In this document: positions 19,519 through 64,000 of the stretch, piece after piece
Position numbering within the stretch: the stretch's first letter is position 1
How the letters are laid out: every line of letters starts with the position of its first letter
DNA from: Alphaproteobacteria bacterium
Lineage (GTDB): Bacteria; Pseudomonadota; Alphaproteobacteria; SMXP01
DNA length: 64,000 bases
Direction of reading: 5' to 3'
Assembly (NCBI GenBank): GCA_965214255.1
Contig: OZ243948.1
Coordinates: 1,433,885-1,497,884 of the forward strand
The notes under the pieces: model-generated
Seen by the model: only the letters and a program-made list of their open reading frames with translations
Database searches by the model: none
What the model was told of the DNA's origin: nothing
Program-made: the position numbers and the translations under genes

Positions 19519-19560
19519 CCCGAGATAAGGCCGCCGTTTCCCGCGGGCCGTCAGACCGGA

Positions 19561-20439: not shown

Positions 20440-20466
20440 TCGTGATTGTCACACGTGTACAAGCCG

Positions 20467-44630: not shown

Positions 44631-46301
44631 ATGTCCGCTTTGATTTCACGCCATATCGCCACGGTCGGCAGCCGCCAAGTTCATTACCGCCGCGCCGGAG
44701 ACGGCCCGCCCGTCATGCTGTTGCACCAGTCGCCTACATCGTCGCGGGAATACGTGCCGTTGATTACGGAACTGGCAAAGGACTTCACCGTCTTTTCGCC
44801 CGACACGCCGGGCAACGGGCTGTCGGACCCCCTGCCGATCGAAACCGTCACCATGAGCGATCTGGCAGACGCGGTCGCGGGTCTCCTCGACGAACTGGGC
44901 ATTGAAAAAATTCCCGTCTACGGCTTTCACACGGGCGCGCTCTGCGCTCTTGAACTGGCCCGCCGTCATCCGGACCGCATCGCGCTGTCCATTGTCAACG
45001 GCTACATTCAGATGGACGACGCCACGCTTCAAGATTTTCTCGATCATTATTTTGCGGAACTCCATGTGGATTGGAGCGGCAGTCATCTCGCCTGGATCTG
45101 GGCGCGCATGCGCGAACAATATATTTTCTTCCCGTGGTACAAGAAGGGCCTCGAACACCGCGGAAATTTCGATCTTCCGTCCAAAGAGCATATTCACGAC
45201 GCCGTCATGGAAATTTTGAGGGCGGGCGATCACTATCGCGGGCCGTACCGCTCGGCGTTCATGTTCGACGCGGCGGAAGCCGTGCAACAGGTCACGGCAC
45301 CGACCGTCATGATGTGCGCGCGCAGCGACGTGTTGTTCGCCTTTTTCGAGGTGATGCCGAAACCGGCGGACTGCGTGACCAAGCTCGCGACGGACTCCCA
45401 CGAGCACAGCGAGCGGGAACTCGTTCGGCTGTTCAAGGAAAACCCCTCTTCGGCTGCCGCGCCCGAGGTCGCCCCGACCAGGGCGATGGAAGGCAAAGTG
45501 TGGCGTGAATGTTTCGCCGTAAACGGCGGCACGCTCTACGGGCGGCGCAACACCGACGGTCAGGGACGCCCCGTCGTCATTCAGCATGCCTCCGCCGGGT
45601 CGAGCGCGGGTCAGGTGGATCTGATGCAGGCGTTCATCGGCAAGCGTCCGGTGATCGCCTTCGATTTGCCGGGCAACGGCGAAAGCGACAGATTGCTGGA
45701 CGCCGACGACATCACCGTCGCCCGACAGGCGGATTTCCTGGCTCAAGGCATTCGCGCCGCGGGCTACGACGAAATCGATATCATCGGCGACTGGGGCGGC
45801 GGAACCGTAGCGGTCGAACTCGCGGCGCAGAACCCCGATCTCGTCAAACACGTCGCCGCGCCTCACCTGATCGTGCTCGACGACGCCACCCGCGAGAGGT
45901 ACCTTGAGCACTATACGCCGCCCCTCGACATCGACGAATATGGCGGGCATATGCTCAAGGCGTGGGTCATCATCCGCGATCAGGAACTTTTCGCCCCCTA
46001 TTTCGAGCGCAAGCGCGAGAACATCATTCGCTCGCACGAGCCGCGCATAGATCCGCAACACGTTCATCTGCGCACGCTCGATCTTTTGAAATGCGCCGAT
46101 CTTTACGGCAAGTTCTACGCCGCACACTTCACCTACCCGGTCCTGGATCGACTGAAGCGGCTTGCCTGCCCGATTCTGATCGGCGATCCGGACGGTCCGG
46201 CCGCCGCGCTCGACTTGCCCAACGTCACGGCGCGAAAACTGCCCTATGGACCCGGCCCCGAACTCGCCGACGCCCTGCTCACATTCTTCGAAACCGCGTA
46301 A
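44631..46301 (+). CDS. Tandem-duplicated alpha/beta-hydrolase-fold protein (epoxide-hydrolase/dehalogenase-like) with variant nucleophile elbow
   Basis: Domain 1 has HQSPTSS…PGNGLSDP…YGFHTGAL, with His at the nucleophile position. Domain 2 has QHASAGSS…PGNGESD…IGDWGGG, which is GHDWGG-like. Confidence 0.7.
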   Translation: MSALISRHIATVGSRQVHYRRAGDGPPVMLLHQSPTSSREYVPLITELAKDFTVFSPDTPGNGLSDPLPIETVTMSDLADAVAGLLDELGIEKIPVYGFHTGALCALELARRHPDRIALSIVNGYIQMDDATLQDFLDHYFAELHVDWSGSHLAWIWARMREQYIFFPWYKKGLEHRGNFDLPSKEHIHDAVMEILRAGDHYRGPYRSAFMFDAAEAVQQVTAPTVMMCARSDVLFAFFEVMPKPADCVTKLATDSHEHSERELVRLFKENPSSAAAPEVAPTRAMEGKVWRECFAVNGGTLYGRRNTDGQGRPVVIQHASAGSSAGQVDLMQAFIGKRPVIAFDLPGNGESDRLLDADDITVARQADFLAQGIRAAGYDEIDIIGDWGGGTVAVELAAQNPDLVKHVAAPHLIVLDDATRERYLEHYTPPLDIDEYGGHMLKAWVIIRDQELFAPYFERKRENIIRSHEPRIDPQHVHLRTLDLLKCADLYGKFYAAHFTYPVLDRLKRLACPILIGDPDGPAAALDLPNVTARKLPYGPGPELADALLTFFETA

Positions 46302-46314
46302 GGGAGTATCCTAC

Positions 46315-47154
46315 ATGCAGATCGACCGTGGATTCGTTCGCATCGACGAAGGTCTCGTACATTACCGCCATTGCGGCGAGCCGAGCGATGCGCCGCCGCT
46401 TTACATGATTCACGCCTCTCCGGCGTCGTCCATTGCCGTCGCCGGTCTCATGGGACACCTGGGCGCGACGCGCAAAGTCTACGCTCCCGATACGCTGGGC
46501 AACGGCGATTCGGCGCCGCCCGCCCTCGACAAGCCGCAAATGGACTACTACGCGGAAACCGTGACGCGGGTGCTCGATGGATTGGGACTCGATCAGGTGG
46601 ACATGTTCGGCAGCCACACCGGCGCGCACATCTCTTCGGAAGTCGCCATTCGTTATCCAGACCGCGTGCGCAGACTCGTCTTCGACGGCGTCGCCATGTT
46701 CACCGAAGACGAGCGCCGCGAATGTTTGGAGAATTACGCGCCCGAGATGGCGCCCGACATTTACGGCAATCATCTCAACTGGGCGTGGCACTTCGTACGC
46801 GACCAGGGCGCGTATTTCCCTTATTTCAAACGGGACCCCGAGCATGTCCGCAGCGTACCCATGCCGTCCGCGGACGTGCTTCACGCCATAACCGTAGAAG
46901 TGATGAAGGCGATCCGCACCTATCACAAAGGCTACCGCGCGGCTTTCAGTCACAACATTCGCGAGCGGCTGCCGCTCATCGAGCAGACGACGTTTTGCAT
47001 GGCGTCGGACTCCGATCCTCTGAACCCGGGCGTCGATGAAACGGCGCGTCTCGTCAAAAACTCCCGCAAAGCGATCCTGCCGGGCGAAGAGACGCCCGAA
47101 GGCTTGGAAGCCAAGGCCGAAGCCATTCAACGGTTTCTTGATGACCATGACTAA
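46315..47154 (+). CDS. Alpha/beta-hydrolase-fold protein, single domain (paralog)
   Basis: IHASPASS…LGNGDSAP…FGSHTGAH. ATG 46315 follows agggag. Confidence 0.7.
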   Translation: MQIDRGFVRIDEGLVHYRHCGEPSDAPPLYMIHASPASSIAVAGLMGHLGATRKVYAPDTLGNGDSAPPALDKPQMDYYAETVTRVLDGLGLDQVDMFGSHTGAHISSEVAIRYPDRVRRLVFDGVAMFTEDERRECLENYAPEMAPDIYGNHLNWAWHFVRDQGAYFPYFKRDPEHVRSVPMPSADVLHAITVEVMKAIRTYHKGYRAAFSHNIRERLPLIEQTTFCMASDSDPLNPGVDETARLVKNSRKAILPGEETPEGLEAKAEAIQRFLDDHD

Positions 47155-47983
47155 CCCCGCTCCATTCGGCCCCGCGAACATCGTGCGGGACTACGGCGCT
47201 TACGAGCACGGACAGATCCATTTCCGGATCTCCAGGCCGGACGACCCGGCGCGCACGCCGCTCATGTGCTTTCACATGAGTCCGAGTTCGGGCCGCATTT
47301 ACGCGCGGCTTTTGAGTTATCTGGGGACGGACCGGATAGCGCTCGCTCCGGACACGCCGGGCTTCGGCGAAACGGACGTGCCGCCCCGCCCCTTGGAGAT
47401 CGAAGATTTCGCCGAAGCGAATTTCGGATTGCTCGATCAATTGGGTTTGACCGGTGAAGTCGATGTCATGGGGTATCATACGGGCTCTTTGACCGCTTCC
47501 GAGATGGCGCGCCAACAGCCGGGGCGCATCCGCCGCGTGATCCTGATCTCCGCTCCGATCTTCACGGAAACGGAACTCGAAGAATTTCGCAACGAGTACG
47601 CGCACCGCGAAGTCAAGGAAGACGGCAGCCATCTGGTCGACTTGTGGAAGGCCGTGCGCTTCTGGGGCGACAAAACGCAAACCCTCGAAAACGCCATGGA
47701 GCACTATGCCGAACATTTGCGCGGCGGCAAGAATTCCTGGTGGGGCCACCGCGCGGCCTTCAACTACAAACTGCAGGACACGCTGCCGCGGCTCGGTCAG
47801 CCCATTCTGGTCCTCAATACGGAAGACGATCTGCACGAGCACTCCTTGCGCGCCGCGACGCTCATGCAGAACGGACGCATCCGGGAACTTCCCGGCTGGA
47901 GCCACGGGTTTCTGGATATCCATACGCAAGAGGTCGACGCCCTTGTCCGCGCGTTTCTCGACACGGACGAGGTCTCTTCTTGA
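47141..47983 (+). CDS. Alpha/beta-hydrolase-fold protein, single domain (paralog)
   Basis: FHMSPSSG…PGFGETD…MGYHTGSL. The start overlaps the previous gene by 14 bp, or by 8 bp if ATG 47147 is used. Confidence 0.7.
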   Translation: MTMTNPAPFGPANIVRDYGAYEHGQIHFRISRPDDPARTPLMCFHMSPSSGRIYARLLSYLGTDRIALAPDTPGFGETDVPPRPLEIEDFAEANFGLLDQLGLTGEVDVMGYHTGSLTASEMARQQPGRIRRVILISAPIFTETELEEFRNEYAHREVKEDGSHLVDLWKAVRFWGDKTQTLENAMEHYAEHLRGGKNSWWGHRAAFNYKLQDTLPRLGQPILVLNTEDDLHEHSLRAATLMQNGRIRELPGWSHGFLDIHTQEVDALVRAFLDTDEVSS

Positions 47984-48010: not shown

Positions 48011-49613
48011 TTGCATATTGCGGTGTGTTCGACAATAAAAGCGTTTATGACGGACACGAGACCGACGGCGGCGACGGACCGCTTCACCCTTTTGACGGTC
48101 GCCATCGCCGCACTCGGCGCGGGACTCGTGCTGGGACGCGAGTTCACCTTCGGAGTGGTATTATTCTCGGATTCGGCGTCTCATATAGGCGCCGCCCGGA
48201 GTCTGCTGGCCGGGGAAGGACTTCTCAGATGGGACGGCAACCCTTATATTTCGTGGCCTCCTCTCTACCCCCTGCTTCTGGCCGCGGCCAGTTTGGGGAT
48301 ATTCGATCCCATCGCCGTCGCCGGCCCTCTCAACGCCGTCATTTTCGGACTGACTATTTTCATCGTGGGGCGGTATCTGCGGCAACGCCTGGCGTCCCGA
48401 TTCCTGGCGGCATGGGGCTGTCTGGCAACGGCCCTGGCGATCCCGCTGGTGACAATTTCGTCATGGGCGCTCGCCGATACCCTGTTGATCCTGCTGACGA
48501 CCCTGGCGCTCATTCAGACCGACAGGTTCCTGACCGAGGGCAAGACCCGGACGCTGGTCTGGGCGGCGGTGTTCAGCGCCCTGGCCTTGCAGTCCCGGTA
48601 CATCGGGGTTGTCGTGCCGGTTTTTATAGGGCTGCTGCTCCTCTTCCAGCGGGGGGGGGGCCATGGCCCGGAGAGCGGGGCGCGTCGCCGCTTGCTCTCT
48701 GATCGTGGCGGCGCCGACGGTCCTGTGGTTTCTGCGCAATCTCTTGACCGTCGGAGTGATCAAGAGGTACCGCCCGCCCGGCGGCGATCCTCTGATGCTG
48801 CTGCGGGATGTTTTCGACATCCTGTGGAGTTGGGCGCAAATCAATAGTGCTGCGGTGGTCCTGGCGTCGCTCGCCTGTATTTTCGTTGTCGTGCAATGGA
48901 GGCGTTTGACCGTTGCCGACTGGCGGCCTTTCTGGCTGTTCGCGGGTTTCGCGCTGACGTACCTCGTCCTGCTCATCGCGGTCTTATCGTTTCTGACCAA
49001 TGTCAACCCTCATCGTATAGGGGAGAGACAGATGATTCCGGTGTATATTCCACTCCTGATAGCCGTGGTGTTCGTGCTGGACCGTGTTCTCGACCATGAA
49101 CGAGAGAGGAAGCTGTTGGGAAGCGTCGGCGGCCTGCCGATCGTTCGAACGATGATGCCGGGAAAGAAGGGAAGCGCGCTGGCCGCCATTGTCATGATCG
49201 TTCTTTCTCTGGGAGCGGCGAGTCAGATATTTCCGAACGTCTCCGGCATTATCAAAGCAAACCGCGGCGAGATTTTCCTGGGGTTAAGCGGGCCGCGCTG
49301 GGCCGGTTCCGAGACGATGCGATACCTCCGGGAAAACCCCGTTGCGGGGGAAATATTGAGCAATACGCCATATCCTTTGTCGCTTTACCTCGGTAGAAAC
49401 TATAAGTATCCATCCTACCATTATATGCCGAAAGTCTCCCGGGGCGGGCTGGAGCGGCTATTGATCCCGGACGGCGCGTACATAATCTGGTTCTACAGAC
49501 CAACGTGGAACCGGCGTGAATATGTCTATGGCGGATCCGACCTGGAATTAATTCCGGGCCTGCAACCGGTGGCGGAACTGGCGGACGGTATCGTCTTCAG
49601 GGTGGCAAGGTGA
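48011..49613 (+). pseudogene. Polytopic membrane protein (GT-C/ArnT/PMT-like) split into two frames at a G10 homopolymer
   Basis: ORF 48011..48847 (frame 2) and ORF 48663..49613 (frame 0) are both multi-transmembrane. They join in-frame if the G tract at 48651..48660 is G9. Confidence 0.55.
48651..48660. repeat. Poly-G (G10) homopolymer at the frameshift site
   Basis: Sequence is ctcttccagc + gggggggggg + ccatgg. Confidence 0.9.
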
Positions 49614-50660: not shown

Positions 50661-51527
50661 TCAGTAGCACAGTGTTTCGCGGCCGGGCGCGCGGCCGTAT
50701 CGTTCGAGTCCGGGCGGCAATACGGGGCGGTGTTGCGGCGTCCATGTGAAGCTTTCGTCGCCCTCGGGAGTTTCCGTTTCCAGCGGGCCGCCTTCGGTAC
50801 GGAACAGCATGAGGTTGCCGGTCTTGGATCCGAAAGGCCCGTGGCGCATGTGGGGCGGGCGCCAAAAATACGCGCCGGGCATCATGATACCCGTATCGCC
50901 CGCCATCTCGCCGGTGAGCAAATACATCTCTTCGACAACGGGATGCACTTCAACGACGCTGTTCCGCCACAGGGGCGGCGCCGAAATGATCCACGTTTGA
51001 TTCCCCGTGTAAGGATCGACACGGAGCACCAGATTTCCGAAGTCCGCGACGCCTTCGCCGAGCGCGCTGTCCGGATCCACGTTGAGCCTGGTTTGATCAT
51101 GCGAAAAGGACGCCGTCAGCACGTCGACGCGCTCGATGAGCAGGTCCGGGTCATATAATCCCGACGGCGCGGGGCCGGCCGCGGAAACGGGCTCGCCGGA
51201 GTAAAACGTCAAAACGACGGCGCCGTCCGGCGATTCCACCTCGGTGCGCGCATAGCCGGCCGGCAGATGGGCGTAACACATTTCACCGTAATCAATGTCA
51301 TTGATCTTCAGAGCGCCGCCCAAAACGAAAAGTTCCTCGTGAACGGGCACGTGTTCGACCGCACGCCTTCGCCAACCGGGCGGATATTTGACGAGCGTGC
51401 TGCCGGCCCCGCTGTCGGCGTCCCGGCTCAGGACTTTTACCTCCGTGTCTTCCAGAAGGCCGCCCCAGGGACTTTTCGTCCAGGGCAAAGCCTGCGATTG
51501 AATGAACTCGATATGAGGCCGCGGCAT
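50661..51527 (-). CDS. Bicupin-like hypothetical protein (paralog 2 of 3)
   Basis: See the bicupin paralog at 41253..42158. Confidence 0.55.
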   Translation of the reverse strand: MPRPHIEFIQSQALPWTKSPWGGLLEDTEVKVLSRDADSGAGSTLVKYPPGWRRRAVEHVPVHEELFVLGGALKINDIDYGEMCYAHLPAGYARTEVESPDGAVVLTFYSGEPVSAAGPAPSGLYDPDLLIERVDVLTASFSHDQTRLNVDPDSALGEGVADFGNLVLRVDPYTGNQTWIISAPPLWRNSVVEVHPVVEEMYLLTGEMAGDTGIMMPGAYFWRPPHMRHGPFGSKTGNLMLFRTEGGPLETETPEGDESFTWTPQHRPVLPPGLERYGRAPGRETLCY

Positions 51528-51604: not shown

Positions 51605-52984
51605 CTACGGATTCGAGCCCGAGCGGGACAGTTCGAGGCTCGCGTCCCAATCGGCGCGGAACGTTTTGGCCGCCGCGAAATAGTGTACGGCGGACCAGAC
51701 GCCCGCCGCGCTCATGACCGCGAGAAGCGCATAGCGCAACGACTCGTCGCCGTAGTCCGCGGCCAGGACATCGCTCAGAATGCCCACAACCTGCGGACCG
51801 AAGCCGAGACCGATGAGATTGACGATACACAAGGAGACGGCCGTGACGCTCGCGCGCATGCGCACGCTGGCGAGCCCTTGAAGGGACGCGCCGAACGGGC
51901 CCAGGTGAAGCGAATAGAGAATGACCGGAACGGACAATATCAACAGCGCCGCTTCCCGCACCGGATACCACAAGACGAGGGCGGCGAACGGCACGGACGA
52001 CAGGACCGCGGCGCCGGGCAGCCACAAATACCAGCGTCGATCCGACCGACTCAAGTGATCGGACCAACGCCCGCCGACAAGAGTGCCCGCCCCTCCGGCA
52101 AAGCCCACAACCAGGGCAAGCCAAGTGCCGATTTCACCGGTGGTCATACCGTGCGAGCGAACGAGAAACGACGGTATCCAGGCGAGTACGCAGCCGTAAT
52201 TGAGACTGACGAGACAAACGGCGGCCATCAAATGGCGGTAGGACGGGCTGGTGTAAAGATGTCGGACGACGGCTGCGAAAGAGGGAACCGACCGAGCCGC
52301 CGTCAAGCCGTCGGCGAGACCGCGCGTCGGCTCGCGCAATGTGGAATAGACGATGAACGCCAAAAGAAGCCCAGGGACCCCCACCACGAAAAAGGCCGTG
52401 CGCCAACCGAAGAACTCGTTGATCCAGCCGCCCGCCAAAAACCCGATCAGAACGCCCACGGGAATACCCAGCGTATATATGGAAAGCGCCGTCGCGCGCC
52501 TTTCCGGAGGGAAATAGTCCGAGATCAGGGAATAAGCGGGAGGGCTGCCGCCCGCCTCGCCGAAACCCACACCGACGCGCGCGAGCGCCAACTGCGCAAA
52601 ACTCTGGGCAAACCCCGAAAGCGCGGTCATGGCGCTCCAAACCGCGATGGCGATCGAGATGACGTTTTTGCGGTTCCAATGATCGGCTATGCGCGCGATC
52701 GGGATCCCCGCAAGCGCATAAAGAACGGCGAAGGCGATGCCGGTGAGAAAGCCGAGCTGCGTGTCGGAAAGATCGAGCTCCGCCTTGATGGGAGGAAGCA
52801 GAATCGCCAGGATTTGGCGGTCGATGTAATTGACCACCGAAACAACGAACAAAATCGCGATGACATAGCGTCTGTAGCCGTCCGTCACGAGCGGCGAGGG
52901 GTGTCTCGGCATGTTCGGCGCTTCGCTTGTCATAAGGCGCATGACGTCCTCGATCGTGGGTGCAACGGGCGCGTCTGCCGACAA
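51605..52984 (-). CDS. MFS transporter
   Basis: 12 hydrophobic segments and the MFS loop motif (…GIPIARIADHWNRKNV…). Confidence 0.85.
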   Translation of the reverse strand: MSADAPVAPTIEDVMRLMTSEAPNMPRHPSPLVTDGYRRYVIAILFVVSVVNYIDRQILAILLPPIKAELDLSDTQLGFLTGIAFAVLYALAGIPIARIADHWNRKNVISIAIAVWSAMTALSGFAQSFAQLALARVGVGFGEAGGSPPAYSLISDYFPPERRATALSIYTLGIPVGVLIGFLAGGWINEFFGWRTAFFVVGVPGLLLAFIVYSTLREPTRGLADGLTAARSVPSFAAVVRHLYTSPSYRHLMAAVCLVSLNYGCVLAWIPSFLVRSHGMTTGEIGTWLALVVGFAGGAGTLVGGRWSDHLSRSDRRWYLWLPGAAVLSSVPFAALVLWYPVREAALLILSVPVILYSLHLGPFGASLQGLASVRMRASVTAVSLCIVNLIGLGFGPQVVGILSDVLAADYGDESLRYALLAVMSAAGVWSAVHYFAAAKTFRADWDASLELSRSGSNP

Positions 52985-53937: not shown

Positions 53938-53951
53938 TCGGCGCGTCCCGC

Positions 53952-55937
53952 TTAGAGCCGGCGGCCCAATTCGAGACCTTCCGTCACGGCAGCCCAAATG
54001 GAGCGCGGCGTCACGCAATCCCCGATCGCTTCGACACCGTCGGGAACCTCCGTTACCGCGGCGCCGGTCGCGAGCACGATGGCGTCGAACGGGCCCAAAT
54101 CTCTTCCGTCGATTGTGCGCGCCATGCCGTTTTCCACCCGATCGACGAGCGTGCTCGTGTGAATCGTCACGCCCGCGTCCGACATGCGTTTGGTGACGCT
54201 CTCGATTTCTACCGTGAATTGAAGATCGGGAAGGCCCAGACTCATGCGGTCTGTGGTGACCGTGACCGAACTCACGTCCGGCATGGCATTGATGGATTCG
54301 ACCGTCGACACCGAGGCCCAGCCGCTTTCCTCATCTATGACCAGGACCTTGCCCGACACCCCGCGGCGGCCGGCCAGAACGTCGCGTCCGTGAGGCAGAG
54401 TCTCCGTACCGGGAATACCGTCGAACAATTGCGGCCGGTTGCGCCAGACGTGAGTGTTTGCGGGTCTGGCCCCCGTCGCCCAAACCACCTTGTCGGCGCC
54501 GAGGGCCGCAGGATCGCTCACGCGCGCGCTCAAATGAACATCGACATTCAGACGTTCGAGTTCGCCTTCCCACCAAGCCAGCGCGGGGCGCATTTCGCCC
54601 CGATGAGGCGCTTCCGCCGCGAGACGGAACGCGCCGCCCAGCCTGGGTTCCGCCTCATAAAGCGAGACGCGGTGTCCGCGGGCGGCCGCGACGCGCGCGG
54701 CTTCCATACCCGCCGGGCCGCCGCCGACAACGGCGATGTCTTTGGGCTTACCTGCGGGCTTGGCGTCGGGCAGTTCGTATTCACGGCCCGCGCGCGGATT
54801 GATGATGCAGCTTGACGGGACCGCGCGAAACGCGAAGCCCAGGCATGCCTGATTACACGACATGCAGGGGCGTATGCGCCGCCGCTCGCCGCGCTCCAGT
54901 TTGGCTGTCCAATCGGGTTCCGCGATGTGAGCCCGCGCCATGGCTACGCAGTCCGCCTGTCCTTTGGCGATGACCTCCTCGGCCTCTTCCGGCGACTTGA
55001 TGCGGCCTGCGACGACGACCGGCACGGACAACTCCCGTTTGAATTTCGCCGCCGCGGGCGCCACATCGGCCCGCGCCCAATGCATGGGCGAAATCATTTT
55101 TTCAAACGTCCAGTTGGTCGCCGTCATGACACTGACGTAGTCGACGAGCCCTTTGTCGGCCAGCAGTTTCATGGACGGGACGGATTCGTCCAGTCCGTAA
55201 CCGTCGGGGTCGTGTTCGAGCAGGTGCTCGGCCGACGTGCGTACGGTGACGGCCGTATCGGAATCCGCCTCTTCCCGCACCGCTTCCAGCACCTCGACCA
55301 GAAACCGGCAACGGTTTTCGAGCGAGCCGCCATATTCGTCCGTGCGGCGATTGAGACGGGGCGACAGGAAAGCGCCCATCAGATAATCCGATGCGGTTTG
55401 CACTTCGATAACGTCAAGACCCGCCCGGGCGCAGCGGCGCGCGGCCATGCGGTACGCCTGCCTGATTTCAGCCAAGTCGTCCTTCGTCATTTCCTTCGGG
55501 ATATCGCCGGTGACGAACGACGGAACCGGCGACGGAGCAAGGGGCACGACTCCGTCAAAATGCGAGACATTGTGCCCGCAATGCCAAAGGATGAGCGAGA
55601 GGCGCGAACCTTCCGCGTGGACCGCTTCAGCCGCCTTGGCCAGCCCGTCGACGCAGTCCTCCTCCCACAATTGCGGCGACATGATCCCCATGACGGACGA
55701 CGGGTGAATCGGCGCCGACCCCATGCCGACGACCGCCGCGCCGCCTCGCGCGCGCTCTCGCAAATAGCCGATATAGCGGTCGCCCACCTTTTTGTCTTCG
55801 GTGCCCAGGTTCATGCTGTGTCCCGGAATGACGACCCGATTTCGAAACGTCAAAGGCCCCATCCGAATGGGCGACAAAAGATTGGGATAGGCGTCGGACG
55901 GCGAAGATTCCGCTACCGTCATATTCGTTTCCTTCAT
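53952..55937 (-). CDS. 2,4-dienoyl-CoA-reductase-like oxidoreductase (OYE-like FMN domain, 4Fe-4S Cys cluster, FAD/NAD(P) domain)
   Basis: Old-Yellow-Enzyme-like N-terminus, a CMSCNQAC iron-sulfur motif, and a C-terminal Rossmann motif (IAVVGGGPAGMEAA). Confidence 0.8.
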   Translation of the reverse strand: MKETNMTVAESSPSDAYPNLLSPIRMGPLTFRNRVVIPGHSMNLGTEDKKVGDRYIGYLRERARGGAAVVGMGSAPIHPSSVMGIMSPQLWEEDCVDGLAKAAEAVHAEGSRLSLILWHCGHNVSHFDGVVPLAPSPVPSFVTGDIPKEMTKDDLAEIRQAYRMAARRCARAGLDVIEVQTASDYLMGAFLSPRLNRRTDEYGGSLENRCRFLVEVLEAVREEADSDTAVTVRTSAEHLLEHDPDGYGLDESVPSMKLLADKGLVDYVSVMTATNWTFEKMISPMHWARADVAPAAAKFKRELSVPVVVAGRIKSPEEAEEVIAKGQADCVAMARAHIAEPDWTAKLERGERRRIRPCMSCNQACLGFAFRAVPSSCIINPRAGREYELPDAKPAGKPKDIAVVGGGPAGMEAARVAAARGHRVSLYEAEPRLGGAFRLAAEAPHRGEMRPALAWWEGELERLNVDVHLSARVSDPAALGADKVVWATGARPANTHVWRNRPQLFDGIPGTETLPHGRDVLAGRRGVSGKVLVIDEESGWASVSTVESINAMPDVSSVTVTTDRMSLGLPDLQFTVEIESVTKRMSDAGVTIHTSTLVDRVENGMARTIDGRDLGPFDAIVLATGAAVTEVPDGVEAIGDCVTPRSIWAAVTEGLELGRRL

Positions 55938-56194: not shown

Positions 56195-58348
56195 CTAATT
56201 CAGCCTTGCCGTAATCCGGCCGCCGAAGCGGAGCGGGTCGGTCGGATAGAAGCGTCCGAACAGGATGGCGTCATATGCTTTTTCATTCGTGCAATTGCTG
56301 CATTCCATCGCAATGCGCCACCGGCCGTCCGCCAACTCGATCCCCGCCTGGGCGTTGGTCAAGACCTTGTTCTGGATGACGTCGTTCGCATTGCCTTGAG
56401 CGGCATAGTAGTCCGCGTGATAGCTCGCGTCGGCGGAGAGGAAGGCGTCAAACAGATCGTTGACCGGACGGCGATAATTGAAGCCCCAGTGCGCCGTCCA
56501 TTGCGGAAACTGCTTGAGATTGGGATTGCCGATCGTAAGCTGCGGACGCAGTTCGGTAAAGCCGCCCTTCTGATAGCCGGCGCTGGCAAACAGGTCGAGA
56601 CCTTCGATCATGCTGACGAAGAGTTCCCCTTCGATGCCGCTGACCCTCGAATCACCGGCGTTGAACTGGCCGAAGACGCTGCCGCCGCCGGCAAGGCCCG
56701 CCTGCGTGGCGGTGGTGACCAGATCCTTGTACGTGGTCCGGAAGCCGGTCAGGTTCAAGCGCACCTGATTGTCGAACCATTCCGACCGCATGCCGGCTTC
56801 ATACGAATTCACGTTTTCCTGACGGAAATCGAAGAAGTCCGAGGCGATGTCGATACGGTTGTTCCAACCCGGCGATTTGTGTCCGTTGGTGTAGGTGACG
56901 TAGAAATTGATATCGTCCGTCGCCTGCCATTGAATGCCGACCTTCGGATCGAATTCCCACGTCTCCAACTCTACGGGCACGCCCATGGCAATGAGGTCGG
57001 CCGTAAGCAGCGGGCCGGTACCGATTTGATAATCGATCTCCGTTTGCTTCTGCTCGTAGGTTACGCGGCCGCCGAATATCAGATTCACGTCGGGAACGAC
57101 CTCGTAGTCCAACTGCGAATAGAAGGCCACACTGTTGATATCCCAGTCGAGCTTGCGGTCAGCGGTATTGACGGGCGGCATGGTGCTATCGACGAATCCA
57201 TTGAAGTCGAGGATGCGCTGGTTGTTGGACTCGTTGATATAGAAGATGCCGCCGACCCAACTCATGTTGCGGTCGACGATCTCGAAATCGGCCGTGCCCT
57301 TGACCTCTTGCGTGAACACGTTCACTTCGGACTCCTGGTCGATCAGGAATCCGCCCTCGGGGAAAAAACCGGCCGCCAGCAGAGCCCCCGGATCATAGAA
57401 TTCACCCAGAAGCTCCATCTTCGTGTGACGATACGAGGTGATCGATTCGACCGCGACGGGGCTGCCGTCCCAACGCGCCGTCAAATTGAACCCGTAATCT
57501 TTGCCCCACGTGCCGAAATCGGGATCTTCCTGGCCCGGAGTCGTGTAACTAAACAGATCCTCGGCTCCGCTTGATGAACCGATCGGGCCAATATTGTCAG
57601 ATTCCGTGAAGTCGAACGACAAATCAAGCGTCAAAGAGTCGCTGGCCAGCAAGCGCCCCTGAAGCATGAGGCCCTGTTTGCCCTTTTGGTGAGACACGGC
57701 TCCCGGCACCGAAATATTCTCCTGATGACCGTCATCGCGCTCGAAGAAACCGGTCGCTTTGAGAAAAAGGTTATCCCGAACCGGCGCGTTGGCGGTGGCA
57801 AACAGATTCACTTCATTTTTGTTGCCGTAGCGAACGCTCATTCTACCGTAGAACTCGTCGCTCGGCTTTTTCGTAAAGACCTTGACCGCGCCGGCCGTCG
57901 CATTGCGGCCGTACAGCGTGCCTTGGGGGCCGCGCAGCACTTCGACGCGCTCAATGTCCAGGAACGAGACATTGTTGTTCAACTGCCGCGGGAAAACGAC
58001 GTCGTCCACATAGGTTTGAATGGGCGGATCGAAGCTCAACAGACTTTCGTCGTTGCCGACGCCGCGCATGAAGTAGGTGATATTGTTGTTTTGACCGACA
58101 TTGCGGTTTCCGATCAGGTTGGGCACCTGGCGGATCAAATCATGGGTGTCGAGGATCATGCGCTGCTGGATCTGTAACTCGCCCAAGGCCGTTACGGCGA
58201 CGGGAACGTCTTGCAAATTCGCCTCGCGCCGTTCCGTCGTCACGGTAATGACGCTTACCTGAGCCGATGCGGACACGGCGGCCAGACAGCCGCCCGCCAA
58301 CAGCATCGCGGCCGCGGAATATTTGAGCTTCGAAGTTTCTTTAATCAT
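56195..58348 (-). CDS. TonB-dependent outer-membrane receptor
   Basis: Signal peptide, TonB-box-like ISVITVT and plug motifs (…VEVLRGPQGTLYGRNATAGAVKV…). The C-terminus ends …ARLN rather than the usual aromatic residue. The start is the internal ATG 58348. Confidence 0.85.
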   Translation of the reverse strand: MIKETSKLKYSAAAMLLAGGCLAAVSASAQVSVITVTTERREANLQDVPVAVTALGELQIQQRMILDTHDLIRQVPNLIGNRNVGQNNNITYFMRGVGNDESLLSFDPPIQTYVDDVVFPRQLNNNVSFLDIERVEVLRGPQGTLYGRNATAGAVKVFTKKPSDEFYGRMSVRYGNKNEVNLFATANAPVRDNLFLKATGFFERDDGHQENISVPGAVSHQKGKQGLMLQGRLLASDSLTLDLSFDFTESDNIGPIGSSSGAEDLFSYTTPGQEDPDFGTWGKDYGFNLTARWDGSPVAVESITSYRHTKMELLGEFYDPGALLAAGFFPEGGFLIDQESEVNVFTQEVKGTADFEIVDRNMSWVGGIFYINESNNQRILDFNGFVDSTMPPVNTADRKLDWDINSVAFYSQLDYEVVPDVNLIFGGRVTYEQKQTEIDYQIGTGPLLTADLIAMGVPVELETWEFDPKVGIQWQATDDINFYVTYTNGHKSPGWNNRIDIASDFFDFRQENVNSYEAGMRSEWFDNQVRLNLTGFRTTYKDLVTTATQAGLAGGGSVFGQFNAGDSRVSGIEGELFVSMIEGLDLFASAGYQKGGFTELRPQLTIGNPNLKQFPQWTAHWGFNYRRPVNDLFDAFLSADASYHADYYAAQGNANDVIQNKVLTNAQAGIELADGRWRIAMECSNCTNEKAYDAILFGRFYPTDPLRFGGRITARLN

Positions 58349-58750: not shown

Positions 58751-60427
58751 ATGGCCGTATCTCAAATCGAACGGCATTTCGTGACGTTCGATAACCGTCA
58801 AATTCATTACCGCCGCGCCGGGTCGGGGCCGCCCGTCCTGCTCCTGCACCCCTCGATGCGTTCATCGGCCATTTACATATCGTTGATCGAAAGGCTCGCC
58901 GAACATTTCACCGTCATCGCCATGGACTCGCCGGGTTACGGCCTGTCGGATCATGTCCACATGCTAAAGCCCGAGATTCCGGATTTCGCCGACGGCGTCA
59001 TTCAATTCCTGGACACGCTGGGCATCGACAAAGTTGGCCTTTACGGCCAGCTCACGTCGGCAAAAATTGCGCTCGACCTGGCATGCCGCTATCCGGAACG
59101 CTTTACCGTCGTCGTTCTCGATAAATACCTCATGCATACCGAAGATGAGCGCCGCGACGTGCTGTTGAATTTTGCGCCCGAATTCAAGCCCGTTTGGGAC
59201 GGTCGGCACATGCTGCATGCCTGGACGTTCGTGCGCGAGCACGCCCACTCCTATCCCTGGCACCGGCAAACCGCGACGACGCGCATCGACGTGGACATGC
59301 CGGACGCCGACGGTCTTTATTTCGGGGTCATGAACTTTTTCCGGACGGGCCTTTTTTATCATCTGGGGCCAAGGGCCGCCTTCCGCTATATCGGCCAGCC
59401 TCGCGTTCACCAGATCAAGGCGAGGACATTTTTTCTGGGCACGCGGCTCAAACCGTTTGATACCCACCTTGAGCGTCTGCCCGAACTGCCCGGTCACGTC
59501 ACGGCGGAAATGGTGGAAGACGAAGCGCAATTCGAGTCGCGCCTGATGGAAATTCTGTCGGCGTTTCCCTCAAACGCACAGGTGCCGCCGGCTCCCGCCC
59601 CCGCGCCCCTCAAAGACCGATGCGTCAGCACGTATCTCGAAGGCGACGGCGGTCTTGTCCATGTGCGCCACAACCCTCACGGGTCCGGACGGCCATTGCT
59701 TCTGGTACACGGCGCCGGGTCCGCCGCGCGCATCGGCGAACGTTTGGCCGACTCATTGACGGGAAAGAGACCGATTATCGGAATCGACCTTCCGGGCCAC
59801 GGAGAATCCGACCCCCTCGCGAACATCGAAGCCGATACGGTGGCGGCTTATGCCTCATCCCTCGCGCAATCCGTCGATCGCTTGAACTTGACCGAAGTCG
59901 ACATCCTGGCGCTCGAAGGCGGCGGCTGCGTCGCCCTTGAGTTGGCCAATTTGAAACCCGGCTTCATAAAACAACTCGTCCTTTGCGACGTACTTTGCCC
60001 CGGCACCGAAGAATACGATGAATTTCGAACGCGCTATGCGCCGACGATCATGCCGGACGAACACGGCGGCTATTTGCTGCAAGCCTGGCATTTCATTCGC
60101 GACCAATATCTGTTCTGGCCGTGGTTCGATAAACGAAAAGAAAACTTTTTGTGGGAACCACCCTATGCGGAACTCGAGTTCGTGCATTCCAAAGTCGTCG
60201 AGCTTTTGAAATCCTTGAAGTCATTTCAGAGTTTCTATCGCAGTCAATTCGATTACCCGTTCGAAGAGCGGTTGCGCGGCAGCGCGGCGCCCCTGTCCGT
60301 TTACACGTTCCCCCATGATCCGAAGCTCGCCCATGCCGAACGCGCGGGCAGGGCCGCAGGCGTCGAACTCCGGCGCCTGACTCGCGAAATGAACTCCTGG
60401 GCCGAGGAAATCCATGCCCAGGGGTAG
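58751..60427 (+). CDS. Tandem-duplicated alpha/beta-hydrolase-fold protein (paralog of 44631..46301)
   Basis: LLHPSMRSS…PGYGLSDH in domain 1 and LLVHGAGSA…PGHGESDP in domain 2. Nucleophile-elbow positions are GQLTS and LEGGG. Confidence 0.7.
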   Translation: MAVSQIERHFVTFDNRQIHYRRAGSGPPVLLLHPSMRSSAIYISLIERLAEHFTVIAMDSPGYGLSDHVHMLKPEIPDFADGVIQFLDTLGIDKVGLYGQLTSAKIALDLACRYPERFTVVVLDKYLMHTEDERRDVLLNFAPEFKPVWDGRHMLHAWTFVREHAHSYPWHRQTATTRIDVDMPDADGLYFGVMNFFRTGLFYHLGPRAAFRYIGQPRVHQIKARTFFLGTRLKPFDTHLERLPELPGHVTAEMVEDEAQFESRLMEILSAFPSNAQVPPAPAPAPLKDRCVSTYLEGDGGLVHVRHNPHGSGRPLLLVHGAGSAARIGERLADSLTGKRPIIGIDLPGHGESDPLANIEADTVAAYASSLAQSVDRLNLTEVDILALEGGGCVALELANLKPGFIKQLVLCDVLCPGTEEYDEFRTRYAPTIMPDEHGGYLLQAWHFIRDQYLFWPWFDKRKENFLWEPPYAELEFVHSKVVELLKSLKSFQSFYRSQFDYPFEERLRGSAAPLSVYTFPHDPKLAHAERAGRAAGVELRRLTREMNSWAEEIHAQG

Positions 60428-60504
60428 AAACGGATGGAATATCGGCCCGATCCGCGATATTATGAACTGACGACAACCCACACTTCCTGCGAGAGTATTA
60501 AGCC

Positions 60505-61668
60505 ATGGCCAGCCAGTTTCGACACGCGGTTCTCCCGGAGGCCACGAGTGAAGAAGAAGCCCGGCAGGACTTCGTCTTGAGCTTAAGTCAACATTGCATG
60601 AACAACGTCATGCCCGGGATCTCTCCCCTTTACGAAAAGAGAGTTTTGCCGGAGATCAAGCGTGAAAAAGGCCGCGAGCCGGAAACGCGTCATGAAATCC
60701 GCAAGGCCATGCAACGCCAGCCGTACTATCAAATGGCAAGCTCCTTCCAACGCACGACGCAGGAAATGCTATGGAACTCCGTCGACGAAAGCGTGTTGCG
60801 TCAATTGCCCCATTTGATCGACAAGATGAAAAAGGTGACCGGCAGCAAGACCAAAGGGTCGCTGACGCTCGACCCCGGCTTTGAAATTCCCCGCTATATC
60901 AAAAACAACGATCATCATGTCATGCCGGGAGGATTTTCGGCCGACTTGTGCGAAAACGACATCACCGGCGGCGCCATGTACGACCGGGGCGTCTTTCTGT
61001 TCACCGACGGCATGTTCGGCGAAAAGAACGACAGTGTCGGCAAGGCCGGAGTCCGTTTCATCAAGACGTATTATCCCGACCTCAAACCGAACAGAATCCT
61101 CGACGTGGGCTGCGGTGTCGGCATGACGACAGTCCCCCTCAAGGAAGAATGGCCGGACGCGGAAGTCCATGGCATCGATGTCGGACCCGCCTTTTTGCGT
61201 TACGCCCATGCCCGCGCGGAAGAATTCGGCGCCGAGATTCATTTCCATCAGATGAACGGTGAAGGCACGGGTTTCGAGGACAACTCATTCGACCTCGTCA
61301 TTTGCTCGACCGTGTTTCATGAAACCTCGGTGCGCGCCGCGCAAAACCTCATCAAAGAAGCCCAACGCATATTGCGGCCGGGCGGCGTCTACGTTGTCGG
61401 TGAACAGCCGCCCTATGAGGGCAAATCGGCGTTCGAGCAATTCGTCGGCGATTGGGACACGTTCAACAACAACGAGCCCTTTTGGGCCAAGTGCCATGAG
61501 ACGGATTTTGTCGGGATCTGCAAGGATGCCGGCTTCGCGGAGGCATGGTCTTCCCTTGAAGACAGTGTGGGATCAACCAACGAACTCGAAGGCAAAATCG
61601 ACCCGGGCGAAATCGTCGGCACGGACCGCGGCGGCGGGACCTTTTGGTTCTTTACCGCGACGAAGTGA
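60505..61668 (+). CDS. Class I SAM-dependent methyltransferase with ~180-aa N-terminal extension (paralog A)
   Basis: Motif I ILDVGCGVGMTT. Post-I acidic residue, plus FDLVICSTVFHE and LRPGG. Confidence 0.75.
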   Translation: MASQFRHAVLPEATSEEEARQDFVLSLSQHCMNNVMPGISPLYEKRVLPEIKREKGREPETRHEIRKAMQRQPYYQMASSFQRTTQEMLWNSVDESVLRQLPHLIDKMKKVTGSKTKGSLTLDPGFEIPRYIKNNDHHVMPGGFSADLCENDITGGAMYDRGVFLFTDGMFGEKNDSVGKAGVRFIKTYYPDLKPNRILDVGCGVGMTTVPLKEEWPDAEVHGIDVGPAFLRYAHARAEEFGAEIHFHQMNGEGTGFEDNSFDLVICSTVFHETSVRAAQNLIKEAQRILRPGGVYVVGEQPPYEGKSAFEQFVGDWDTFNNNEPFWAKCHETDFVGICKDAGFAEAWSSLEDSVGSTNELEGKIDPGEIVGTDRGGGTFWFFTATK

Positions 61669-61713
61669 GTTAACTGCGGTATAAGGGTTCGGCAATCAAC
61701 GAGGCATCATGCA

Positions 61714-62877
61714 ATGGACAAACAATTCCAACACGCTCTGCTCCCCGCAACCAACAGCGACGAACAGGCCCATCAGGAGTTCGTCCAAAGCCTGCAGCAT
61801 TATTGCATGAGCGACGTCATGCCGGGCGTGTTGGCGGCGTATGAAAAACAAGTGCATCCCAGACTTGTGCGCGAATACGGCCGCGAGCCGGAAACCCGCC
61901 AGGAAGTGCGCAGGGAAATGGAGCGCCATCCCTACTACCAGATGGCCAGTTCATTTCAGCGGACCTCAAAGGAACTCCTTTGGGAGTCCGTCGACCAAAG
62001 CATATTGAGACAGTTGCCTGAACTCGTTGACAAGGCAAACGAATTGACCGGCGGCAAGACCAAAGGGTCTTTGACGCTGGATCCCGATTTGGAAATCCCC
62101 CGCTATGTCTTGAAAAACGACCATCACGTCATGCCCGGCGGGTATTCCGCGGAACTGTGCGACGGCGACATTGCGGCCGGCGCTTTGTACGACCGCGGCG
62201 CCTATCTGTTTGCCGACGGCCTCTTCGGCGAAAAAATGGACAATCTCGGCAAACTGGCGGTTTGGTTCATCAAAAAACATTTCCCCGAGATGAGGCCGGA
62301 GCGGATTCTCAAAATCGGCTGCAATATAGGCGCGTCCACGCTGCCCCTTAAGGAAGCGTGGCCGGAGGCGGACGTCCATGGCATCGATGTCGCGCCCGTC
62401 CTGCTTCGCTACGGGCATGCCCGCGCGGAAGATCTGGGGGTCGCCGTGCATTTTCATCAAATGGACGCCGAAAACTTGAAATTCGAAGACAACAGCTTCG
62501 ACATCGTCTACAGCGTCGCCACCTTCCATGAACTCAATCGACGGGCGGTCTCGAACGTGATCGATGAAGCCCATCGGGTATTGAAACCGGGCGGCGCCTT
62601 CGTGAACGGCGAACAGCCGCCCTACGAAGGCAAGCCGGCTTTCGAACAGTTTTTGGGCGACTGGGATACGCTTAACAACAACGAGCCGTTTTGGGGCGCG
62701 TTTCATGACATGGACGTAGTCGAGATGTGCCGAAAGGCGGGTTTCAGGAAAGCATGGGACGGTTACGGTCCGACGCTCACCTCGCTTGAGAACATGGAAG
62801 CGACGTTTGACCCATCCGAAATCGTCGGCACGGACCGGGGCGGCAGTGAATTATGGTTTTTCGCCGCTATAAAATAA
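61714..62877 (+). CDS. Class I SAM-dependent methyltransferase with N-terminal extension (paralog B, tandem duplicate)
   Basis: ILKIGCNIGAST and LKPGG. The sequence is collinear with paralog A over the full 387 aa. Confidence 0.75.
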   Translation: MDKQFQHALLPATNSDEQAHQEFVQSLQHYCMSDVMPGVLAAYEKQVHPRLVREYGREPETRQEVRREMERHPYYQMASSFQRTSKELLWESVDQSILRQLPELVDKANELTGGKTKGSLTLDPDLEIPRYVLKNDHHVMPGGYSAELCDGDIAAGALYDRGAYLFADGLFGEKMDNLGKLAVWFIKKHFPEMRPERILKIGCNIGASTLPLKEAWPEADVHGIDVAPVLLRYGHARAEDLGVAVHFHQMDAENLKFEDNSFDIVYSVATFHELNRRAVSNVIDEAHRVLKPGGAFVNGEQPPYEGKPAFEQFLGDWDTLNNNEPFWGAFHDMDVVEMCRKAGFRKAWDGYGPTLTSLENMEATFDPSEIVGTDRGGSELWFFAAIK

Positions 62878-62957: not shown

Positions 62958-63314
62958 ATGCTGGACAAGATACAAACGCCGCGCCACGCTCAGGGCCGTC
63001 GGCCTCAATATTTCGATGAAGCGCCGCTTGACCAACTGCACGCCATGATCATCGCCCTCACGGGCGAGGTTTCCGTTCTTGCCGACCGTATCGACACCGT
63101 CGAAGTTTTGCTGGACCAAAAAGGAACGATCAGCCGGGATGACATCGAAACTTTCGCCCTCACCGATGACATCAGAGAGAGGCGGCGCGAGAAAAGATCC
63201 AAATACATCGCCCGGGTGTTCCGCAGTGTGAGCGACGCGCGCGCGGCCATCGAAAAAAGCGAGTCCGACAAATCCTACGCTCAAACGATTGACGAAGATT
63301 CCGTGACGGGATAG
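62958..63314 (+). CDS. Small hypothetical protein (~118 aa)
   Basis: ATG 62958 lies 6 nt after gaggga. Confidence 0.4.
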   Translation: MLDKIQTPRHAQGRRPQYFDEAPLDQLHAMIIALTGEVSVLADRIDTVEVLLDQKGTISRDDIETFALTDDIRERRREKRSKYIARVFRSVSDARAAIEKSESDKSYAQTIDEDSVTG

Positions 63315-63399: not shown

Positions 63400-64000
63400 A
63401 TGTCCAACCGCGTTATCGAATATCTGGATCTCACGAAGACGTCCCATGAGCCCCTTTTGGATCATGGCCTTCCCCTGGGCATGCGAGGGCGGCAGCTCAT
63501 GGATATCCCCTCGGGCGAAACCAGTTTTCTGGTACGGGTCGGTCCTCAGTGGCGCCGCGTCGAGACCGGGTACTACGACAAGGGTCTTGAAATTCTGGTC
63601 CTGGACGGGGCGCTCACCATCGCAGACCAGGAGCTTACGCGGACGTGTTTCAGCTACTTGCCGGCGGGCGCGAAGACGGGGCCTTGGTCGTCGCGGGGCG
63701 GGTGTGACATGCTCTTGATGTTCAAAGGCCCGCCCAACTTCGTTCAGTCGGACAGCGACGGGCCGGGCGTGAAAGCGGACCAGCGCATCGACTGCCTGGA
63801 TGCCAAGGCAACCCCTTGGAATGCCATGCCCGGCTACGAAGGACGCAGCCGGGAGGAAGCGGGTGGGATGCTCTCTCACAAAACTCTGTGCGAGGACCCG
63901 GAGACCAAAGCCTATACGTATTTGGTACGTCAAGGAGCGGGCTGGAGCGAGCCCAAGCTTGAAGCCCATGCCACCTGGGAGGAATTGATCCTTCTCGAAG
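63400..64000 (+). CDS. Bicupin-like hypothetical protein (paralog 3 of 3), truncated by window end
   Basis: ATG 63400. The N-terminus MSNRVIEYLDLTKTSHEPLLDHGLPLG is collinear with the other two paralogs. Confidence 0.5.
   Translation, partial: MSNRVIEYLDLTKTSHEPLLDHGLPLGMRGRQLMDIPSGETSFLVRVGPQWRRVETGYYDKGLEILVLDGALTIADQELTRTCFSYLPAGAKTGPWSSRGGCDMLLMFKGPPNFVQSDSDGPGVKADQRIDCLDAKATPWNAMPGYEGRSREEAGGMLSHKTLCEDPETKAYTYLVRQGAGWSEPKLEAHATWEELILLE

Follow-up and report, generated by a model that had tools for sequence, protein, structure and literature searches.

The subject of this analysis is a gene set at the 3' end of a 64,000-nt stretch of contig OZ243948.1 (assembly GCA_965214255.1, positions 1,433,885-1,497,884 of the forward strand), from an Alphaproteobacteria bacterium of the SMXP01 lineage; we refer to this whole stretch as the window. 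At the core of the set lie two tandem S-adenosylmethionine (SAM)-dependent methyltransferases (MTases), here called A and B, and a small protein encoded directly 3' of MTase B, here called the partner. An earlier interpretation made from the sequence alone, hereafter the sequence-only reading, had proposed a tandem-domain alpha/beta hydrolase followed by two duplicated methyltransferases, and the open reading frames (ORFs) 58751-60427, 60505-61668 and 61714-62877 are all present on the plus strand. The genes of the set and two elements within them are the following (aa, amino acids).

58751-60427, plus strand: two-domain alpha/beta-fold protein, 558 aa, which opens the plus-strand run
59042-59062, plus strand: nucleophile-elbow segment of its N-terminal domain, Y-G-Q-L-T-S-A (aa 98-104), with Leu in place of Ser
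60505-61668, plus strand: MTase A, class I SAM-dependent methyltransferase, 387 aa, with a Methyltransf_25/11 match
60547-60837, plus strand: N-terminal helical hairpin of MTase A (helices aa 15-55 and 73-111), from AlphaFold2 (AF2) secondary structure
61714-62877, plus strand: MTase B, class I SAM-dependent methyltransferase, 387 aa, sister of A
62958-63314, plus strand: small partner protein, 118 aa, whose homologues adjoin MTase genes of this family
63400-64000, plus strand: DUF4437 bicupin ending at the window edge (PF14499, E 3.8e-08; 284 aa on contig L084)

From 58751 onward, the genes of this run are separated by gaps of 77, 45, 80 and 85 nt. A contig with 99.1% DNA identity to the window (L084), on which a 558-aa gene matching 58751-60427 was also called, extends past the window's 3' end. 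There, the order of two-domain protein, MTase A, MTase B, partner and bicupin is continued by an ADC/MppR-like gene, an M24/creatinase-like gene, an MFS transporter, a 273-aa MTase and a 275-aa alpha/beta hydrolase. We read the genes from 58751 onward as the front half of a long plus-strand operon. L084 also carries, on the opposite strand (18521-20967), two more MTase-family paralogues of ~395 aa, which share 36-43% identity with MTase A and have no partner gene beside them; the window and L084 together thus contain at least four members of the MTase family in ~12 kb and a single partner gene. An Rfam scan of the whole 64-kb window returned no family at gathering score, hence no tRNA, rRNA or riboswitch. 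No promoter-like sites were found in a search of the window sequence, and terminator-like sites showed no excess over the shuffled background.

The two MTases are collinear tandem paralogues, as had been proposed. They share 60% identity across all 387 residues with zero gaps, and in a neighbour-joining tree of 70 family members they form a two-member clade of mutual nearest relatives, which indicates a lineage-specific tandem duplication. Both have the seven-strand Rossmann-like fold and glycine-rich motif I of class I enzymes, and the class I motifs named by the sequence-only reading are borne out: across 55 sequences including A and B, the motif I glycines G202 and G206 are invariant, as are the two acidic residues that characterise class I MTases, D225 at the end of beta2 and D263 in motif IV. 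Further invariant polar or aromatic residues lie outside the SAM motifs, namely H7 and, in the cap and lid, D136, H138, Y159-D160, H272-E273, D316-W317-D318 and N321-N322-E324. Residues 198-206 of MTase B read I-L-K-I-G-C-N-I-G, with Lys where the family has Asp or Glu just before motif I and Asn as the middle residue of motif I (G-C-N-I-G). MTase B may therefore bind its cofactor in another way than MTase A does.

The Methyltransf_25/11 families match only aa ~185-300 of either protein (E 1e-23), and residues 1-180 have no match in Pfam, NCBIfam or PDB sequences. In an AF2 model built with 55 homologues (pLDDT, predicted local distance difference test, of 91), this region comprises a hairpin of two helices of ~40 residues each (15-55 and 73-111) and a cap (119-166), followed by the Rossmann core (177-300) and a C-terminal lid; solved structures align with the protein over ~190-220 core residues at most. 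With residues 1-180 as the query, we ran HMMER in full over 1.84 billion representatives. This recovered 526 proteins, and each match lay N-terminally, in a protein of ~370-410 aa or in a fragment of such a protein. All 526 share one ~390-aa architecture or are fragments of it, which rules out an independent N-terminal domain and identifies the region as a family-specific extension rather than a mobile domain. The sequence-only reading, which had described an unknown ~180-aa N-terminal domain, is thus corrected on this point.

At 50% identity, the MTase subfamily is covered by about 500 representatives. Its family occurs in Alpha- and Gammaproteobacteria, Binatia, Nostoc, Myxococcota and other groups. 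Neither window MTase reaches any NCBIfam equivalog cut-off. The best scores are 65 bits against a cut-off of 180 for CpaM, 54 against 185 for BioC, 51 against 158 for MenG/UbiE and 35 against 320 for Tam, and membership of the UbiE/MenG, BioC, Tam, ArsM and CpaM equivalogs is contradicted by scores below the curated cut-offs. The thiol S-methyltransferase MddH is described as a short UbiE-family (COG2226) enzyme that is 37% identical to Escherichia coli UbiE and resembles human TMT1A/B (PMC11445057). Judged against this published description, an MddH-type enzyme appears a poor fit, since the window MTases lie far below the UbiE cut-offs and carry a 180-aa extension.

The many invariant polar residues outside the SAM motifs would also suit a methyltransferase fold that has been turned to non-methyl SAM chemistry, such as carboxy-SAM formation, amino or aminocarboxypropyl transfer, or SAM-assisted cyclisation or decarboxylation, which would spare the pathway a stoichiometric methyl cost. 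MTase B does weakly match RquA, which takes SAM as an amino donor, and several neighbours described below have a carboxylation or decarboxylation flavour. The RquA match, however, amounts to 38 bits against a cut-off of 175, all detectable similarity is to true methyltransferases, and there is no positive sign of another reaction; we regard such chemistry as quite unlikely.

The sequence-only reading omitted the gene at 62958-63314, whose product is the most conserved companion of the MTase. In the first three homologous loci, a gene of 104-130 aa without a Pfam family follows the MTase directly, and its product is 33-55% identical to the window ORF. We then drew on a scan of one genome per species, which gave 82 independent loci with 91 MTase genes of this family. 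The partner adjoins the MTase on the same strand at 70 of these 91 genes, in Alpha- and Gammaproteobacteria, Binatia and cyanobacteria. The gap is mostly 16-40 nt, and the partner lies upstream in a few loci. In L087 and on plasmid pJE1 of Sphingomonas sp. JE1, the partner gene has start and stop codons that overlap with those of its neighbours. Two look-ups seeded with the partner found an adjacent MTase both times. At 90% identity, the partner family falls into about 2000 clusters. Its proteins are all standalone, 95-130 aa long and named hypothetical, and no cluster has a Pfam domain. In the structural model, a disordered N-terminus with an invariant G-x-R-P-x-x-F motif is followed by a two-helix hairpin (aa 22-55 and 70-104). 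The model has no known-fold match and lacks the zinc-knuckle/beta-sheet fold of Trm112. A marginal match to the ANTAR RNA-binding domain was not confirmed on re-check, and we do not assign the partner to that family.

Given the tight coupling, the mid-operon position and the matching hairpins of the two proteins, the simplest reading is that MTase and partner would form a two-subunit enzyme. The invariant motif invites another interpretation, in which the partner is the methyl acceptor and the MTase a dedicated protein methyltransferase acting on Lys or Arg near the G-x-R-P tail, with the catabolic neighbours only loosely linked. The motif lies in a segment predicted to be disordered, which is common for tails that enzymes recognise, and the closer PDB matches of the MTase core include MTases that act on peptides or proteins (LahSB, CypM, NRMT1 and a rickettsial lysine MTase). 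These matches are, however, no better than those to the small-molecule MTases TmtA, UbiG, Coq5 and PEAMT (phosphoethanolamine N-MTase), and the large conserved cap and lid are typical of small-molecule enzymes. A dedicated acceptor also sits poorly with genes that lie mid-operon among enzymes and transporters with overlapping start and stop codons, and with one partner gene beside four MTase paralogues in this genome region. We consider a methyl-accepting partner unlikely. Still less probable, in our view, is that the partner is a regulator, a DNA- or RNA-binding coiled coil for which the MTase-like protein serves as the ligand sensor, in the manner of AmiC-AmiR or NasS-NasT.

Relatives of the flanking genes, a receptor and a transporter lie further upstream in the window, as follows.

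41253-42158, plus strand: DUF4437 bicupin paralogue (PF14499, E 1.4e-35)
44631-46301, plus strand: paralogous two-domain alpha/beta-fold protein, 556 aa, 34% identical to 58751-60427
46315-47154, plus strand: single-domain alpha/beta relative, elbow G-S-H-T-G
47141-47983, plus strand: single-domain alpha/beta relative, elbow G-Y-H-T-G
50661-51527, minus strand: DUF4437/Cupin_7 bicupin paralogue (Pfam)
51605-52984, minus strand: MFS transporter (Pfam), 28% identical to an MFS protein of the pJE1 cluster
53952-55937, minus strand: old yellow enzyme (OYE)-type flavoprotein with FMN and FAD/NAD(P) domains (Pfam)
56195-58348, minus strand: TonB-dependent outer-membrane receptor, divergent from the operon, with plug and beta-barrel Pfam matches

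The product of 58751-60427 has the alpha/beta-hydrolase fold, with two Abhydrolase_1 stretches (aa ~29-123 and 315-420; E 5e-21, Pfam) and many matching alpha/beta hydrolases in the PDB. It falls in a family of ~555-570-aa two-domain proteins, and its membership of the same tandem-domain family as 44631-46301 is upheld by 34% identity over 513 aa (E 3e-103). The interval 44631-47983, which had been taken as one gene, holds three, the two-domain gene and the two single-domain genes listed above.

The name hydrolase is harder to sustain. In an alignment of 56 two-domain proteins, the N-domain elbow reads Y-G-x-H-T-G; the nucleophile column holds His in 43, Ala in nine and Leu in four, and the residue directly after it is Thr in all 56. 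The Leu minority includes the 58751-60427 product and its 92% and 75% identical relatives. At the C-domain elbow no residue is conserved among the 56, the 58751-60427 product included, and by its sequence the second domain is degenerate. Family members encoded near MTases show the elbow G-[FHSY]-H-T-[GS], with His at the position of the nucleophilic Ser and an invariant Thr. The 44631-46301 product has G-F-H-T-G in its N-domain and G-D-W-G-G in its C-domain. All single-domain relatives have G-x-H-T-G, and those from other loci G-H-H-T-G; in the latter, the usual site of the catalytic His reads G-A-N-F-E-P-D and contains no His, and the 47141-47983 product reads G-W-S-H-G in the region after the last core strand. 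The Ser, Cys or Asp expected at the elbow (Sm-X-Nu-X-Sm) of a catalytic alpha/beta hydrolase is thus missing from the 58751-60427 product and its family. To our knowledge, Ser, Cys and Asp are the only nucleophiles of this superfamily, and a literature search on elbows with other nucleophiles returned no description of a His-elbow family. The label "pimeloyl-ACP methyl ester carboxylesterase" that JGI gives to the two-domain family is not supported for BioH proper, since TIGR01738 scores 60 bits against a cut-off of 207 and the elbow lacks Ser. Judged by these motifs, the alpha/beta-fold proteins would not be ordinary serine hydrolases, and ordinary serine-hydrolase chemistry is doubtful for them. 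The replacement of the nucleophilic Ser by His or Leu, together with the degenerate second domain, points either to altered chemistry or to non-catalytic proteins with a binding or scaffold role.

The three bicupins, the TonB-dependent receptor and the MFS transporter that had been noted nearby are all confirmed by Pfam. PF14499 (DUF4437) is reached by the truncated bicupin at 63400-63999 (33 bits against a gathering cut-off of 24) and by 41253-42158 (123 bits), for which the sole PDB relative is the uncharacterised protein 2qdr. The receptor matches PF07715 (plug, E 3e-16) and PF00593 (22-strand barrel, E 1e-30). Its longest ORF reaches 58417, and the 717-aa start at 58348 agrees with the gene call on L084. 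It is 29% identical to the receptor of the pJE1 cluster (754 aa, E 6e-83), and receptors of its own protein cluster (c20) lie near the MTase in about 10 other loci.

The association of these families extends well beyond the window. Of the 12 loci nearest to the window MTases, 10 have MTase, bicupin and two-domain alpha/beta protein together. In eight loci (L002, L004-L007, L010, L012 and L043) the order is MTase, partner, DUF4437 bicupin, in some cases MFS, and two-domain protein; L008 and L009 keep this order without the partner gene. The conserved-order loci come from marine alphaproteobacterial metagenome-assembled genomes with ~50% protein identity. A further 14 loci have single-domain GxHTG proteins within 10 kb of the MTase; the GxHTG subfamily is found at that distance in 24 of the 82 loci. 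On pJE1, one cluster carries an MFS gene, a two-domain alpha/beta protein (elbow T-H-T-S), a second MFS gene, a TonB receptor, a GntR regulator, dehydrogenases and PrpD, together with MTase and partner, two flavoproteins, HyuA and HyuB, and a succinate-semialdehyde dehydrogenase. Identities between the window and pJE1 are 29% for the TonB receptor, 28% for MFS, 32% for the alpha/beta protein, 38% for the MTase and 39% for the partner. In Binatia and Gammaproteobacteria, the MTase-partner pair is followed by HyuA/HyuB and an MFS transporter, with LLM, SDR, GntR, CoA-transferase III and LeuCD-like genes close by. HMGL-like, Amidohydro_2, arylmalonate-decarboxylase-like and CMD genes are found at other MTase loci. 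Related loci repeatedly carry TonB receptors, MFS transporters and regulators of the GntR or MarR type. A literature search on DUF4437, on clusters of MTase with hydantoinase and on pJE1 found nothing relevant.

Loci of two further kinds carry the MTase in other company. In Nostoc and relatives, a fixed order of trpB, MTase, partner, CAP-domain proteins, 3'-5' exonuclease and rhodanese is seen (L041, L046, L057, L058, L064, L067, L069-L071, L073, L078, L080, L082 and L083). The pyridoxal-phosphate enzyme upstream of the MTase, checked at one locus (L070), is an ordinary TrpB (628 bits against a cut-off of 392), and as a functional clue this neighbour is uninformative. The OYE-type flavoprotein (cluster c39), which is of the 2,4-dienoyl-CoA reductase/amine dehydrogenase type, lies beside MTase paralogues in L011, L013, L014, L017 and L018; in L011, L013 and L014, MTase and flavoprotein genes alternate (MTase, flavoprotein, MTase, flavoprotein) with no partner gene.

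The sequence-only reading had pictured a lineage-specific pathway for uptake and modification of a small molecule, an idea that would fail if the families proved independently widespread and did not co-occur. They do co-occur, in the 10 loci above and on pJE1, and the pathway idea stands; its lineage-specific character does not, as the MTase family is found in all the groups named above. The opposite view would be that there is no joint pathway at all, only a gene-dense island of independent catabolic enzymes from families that are each widespread on their own. The window from ~30 to 64 kb is indeed crowded with unrelated oxidoreductases, decarboxylases and transporters, and the MTase-partner pair does appear in several different contexts. 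Such an island would nevertheless hardly account for an order of MTase, partner, bicupin and two-domain protein kept in eight loci, and without the partner in two more, at ~50% protein identity, for five families common to the window and a Sphingomonas plasmid at 28-39% identity, or for a rare GxHTG subfamily within 10 kb in 24 of 82 loci. We judge mere clustering to be quite unlikely.

We favour, with a probability of about 0.5, a catabolic operon fed by TonB and MFS transport and built around a two-subunit SAM-dependent small-molecule methyltransferase, as one copy of a widespread module. Uptake and catabolism are suggested by the content of related loci, which includes regulators of the GntR and MarR families, transporters and a succinate-semialdehyde dehydrogenase. 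The module core would consist of the ~390-aa class I SAM MTase, with its N-terminal hairpin of ~110 residues unique to the family, and the adjacent helical-hairpin protein of ~100-120 aa. We propose that the two associate in a physical complex, hairpin against hairpin, with the G-x-R-P-x-x-F tail of the partner docked on the enzyme, and that a small organic molecule is what this complex would methylate. The tandem copies A and B of the present organism presumably share the single partner. The substrate would first be imported by an MFS transporter and the TonB-dependent receptor encoded divergently from the operon, then methylated by the MTase-partner complex, and finally processed further by the DUF4437 bicupin and the alpha/beta-fold proteins. 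Each of the four alternatives set out above has less support than this.

The genes beside the MTase in other genomes suggest, at the level of protein families only, that the substrate may be a carboxylated compound or a lactam. They encode ATP-dependent enzymes of the hydantoinase A/B type, several decarboxylase families, PrpD, LeuCD-like dehydratases, CoA-transferase III and succinate-semialdehyde dehydrogenase, among others. A lactam, a tricarboxylate or aconitate, a guanidino or creatine-type compound, pyridine-derived acids and aromatic acids were all considered on such family-level hints, and we claim none of them.

Several points weigh against the operon as we read it. Adjacency alone is no proof that MTase and partner bind each other, and 21 of the 91 MTase genes have no adjacent partner, including those of L008 and L009, where bicupin and alpha/beta protein are kept. 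SAM-dependent methylation is costly and unusual in catabolism. The Lys before motif I makes the predicted SAM binding of MTase B uncertain. The contexts also vary, with bicupin and alpha/beta protein in some loci, hydantoinase A/B in others and trpB in Nostoc, so the MTase-partner pair may serve different pathways, or its neighbours may be loosely linked. Finally, our literature search found no experiment or publication on any of the four families.

Four observations elsewhere in the window stand apart from these questions. Relative to window positions 53938-53951, L084 carries ~2 kb more (194-2236), with three ORFs of 148, 215 and 225 aa that belong to no Pfam family, between an Asp/Glu-racemase-family gene and the OYE-type flavoprotein gene; their absence from the window indicates a strain-level indel. 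The plus-strand ORFs 48011-48847 (weak PMT_2 glycosyltransferase match) and 48663-49613 (no family) overlap by 185 nt in different frames and may be one membrane glycosyltransferase gene with a frameshift or sequencing error. A CpeT/CpcT-family protein (DUF1001, phycobilin lyase-like) is encoded at 39771-40847, in a catabolic region of an apparently non-photosynthetic proteobacterium, and adjoins genes for a DUF1838 protein, a UbiD-like decarboxylase and a Rieske/VanA-type oxygenase. Directly 5' of the two-domain gene 44631-46301, the ORF 42980-44494 encodes 504 aa that apparently include a signal peptide and match no Pfam family.

All parts of the module belong to known superfamilies; what is new is the association of the four families. 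Our analysis ties four uncharacterised families, namely the MTase subfamily, the partner, DUF4437 and the alpha/beta subfamily that lacks a canonical nucleophile, into one recurring set. The partner belongs to no described family, no solved structure offers a counterpart to the MTase hairpin, and the His-Thr elbow subfamily appears undescribed. The gene set is found in marine Alphaproteobacteria, Gammaproteobacteria, Binatia and sphingomonad catabolic plasmids; of this set, Nostoc has just the MTase-partner pair. A catalytic His-Thr elbow, if confirmed, would broaden what is known of the chemistry of a superfamily that is among the largest of enzymes. The link with TonB and MFS transport points to a substrate that is abundant in the environment and is broken down by an as yet undescribed route. 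Culturable carriers include Sphingomonas sp. JE1, Sphingobium chungbukense DJ77, Croceicoccus and Methylonatrum kenyense.

Comparison with known systems places the module beside several of them. The best solved relatives of the alpha/beta proteins are AidH, an N-acyl-homoserine lactone lactonase (PDB 4g5x, E 2.6e-24), and E-2-(acetamidomethylene)succinate hydrolase (PDB 3kxp, E 8.4e-12). The N-terminal half aligns without gaps, including the oxyanion-loop region and the elbow (GHSLGA in 3kxp), and the nucleophilic Ser of both enzymes falls on the family His or the Leu of 58751-60427. Only the first ~125 residues align, and within the His-elbow subfamily there is no solved structure. On the methyltransferase side, UbiE/UbiG/Coq5, TmtA and the phosphoethanolamine N-MTases are only 17-21% identical, with NCBIfam scores under the cut-offs, and they lack the two-helix N-terminal hairpin, the DWD...NNNEPFW lid motif and a partner gene. 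Caprolactamase, acetophenone carboxylase and N-methylhydantoinase are related to the HyuA/HyuB genes that directly follow the MTase-partner pair in 29 related loci and are absent from the window. The best NCBIfam matches of those genes are caprolactamase CapA/CapB, at 542 and 242 bits against cut-offs of 1000 each. We know of no described Hyu-type system that includes a methyltransferase.

If the MTase truly needs its partner, the pair would be a bacterial analogue of Trm112-type activation with a different fold. Trm112, a beta-sheet protein with a zinc knuckle, forms an extension of the Rossmann sheet. In contrast to the Trm112-activated enzymes (Trm9, Trm11, Mtq2, Bud23; archaeal Hvo_0019-Trm112, PDB 6f5z), the partner here is predicted to be all-helical, and the presumed docking element is the family-specific N-terminal hairpin.

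BioC (malonyl-ACP O-methyltransferase) and BioH (pimeloyl-ACP methyl ester esterase) likewise pair a class I SAM MTase with a protein of alpha/beta fold. In NCBIfam, MTase A has BioC among its best matches (E 1.7e-14), and the alpha/beta protein weakly matches BioH. Their methylate-then-demethylate logic is a possible analogy. Such a logic would amount to a widespread catabolic strategy that has so far gone unrecognised. By it, an imported acid or lactam would be transiently methylated by the two-subunit SAM enzyme during breakdown, masked and later unmasked, and the His-Thr alpha/beta enzymes that act next would form a new catalytic class, with His as nucleophile, general base or metal ligand and with the second domain and the Leu variant non-catalytic; we hold this version to be improbable. 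The scores of 54 against 185 bits for BioC and 60 against 207 for BioH set the systems apart. BioC lacks the N-terminal hairpin and the small partner, and BioH has a Ser-His-Asp triad where proteins of the window type have His or Leu at the Ser position. BioC and BioH serve biotin synthesis, whereas the present module is embedded among genes for transport and catabolism.

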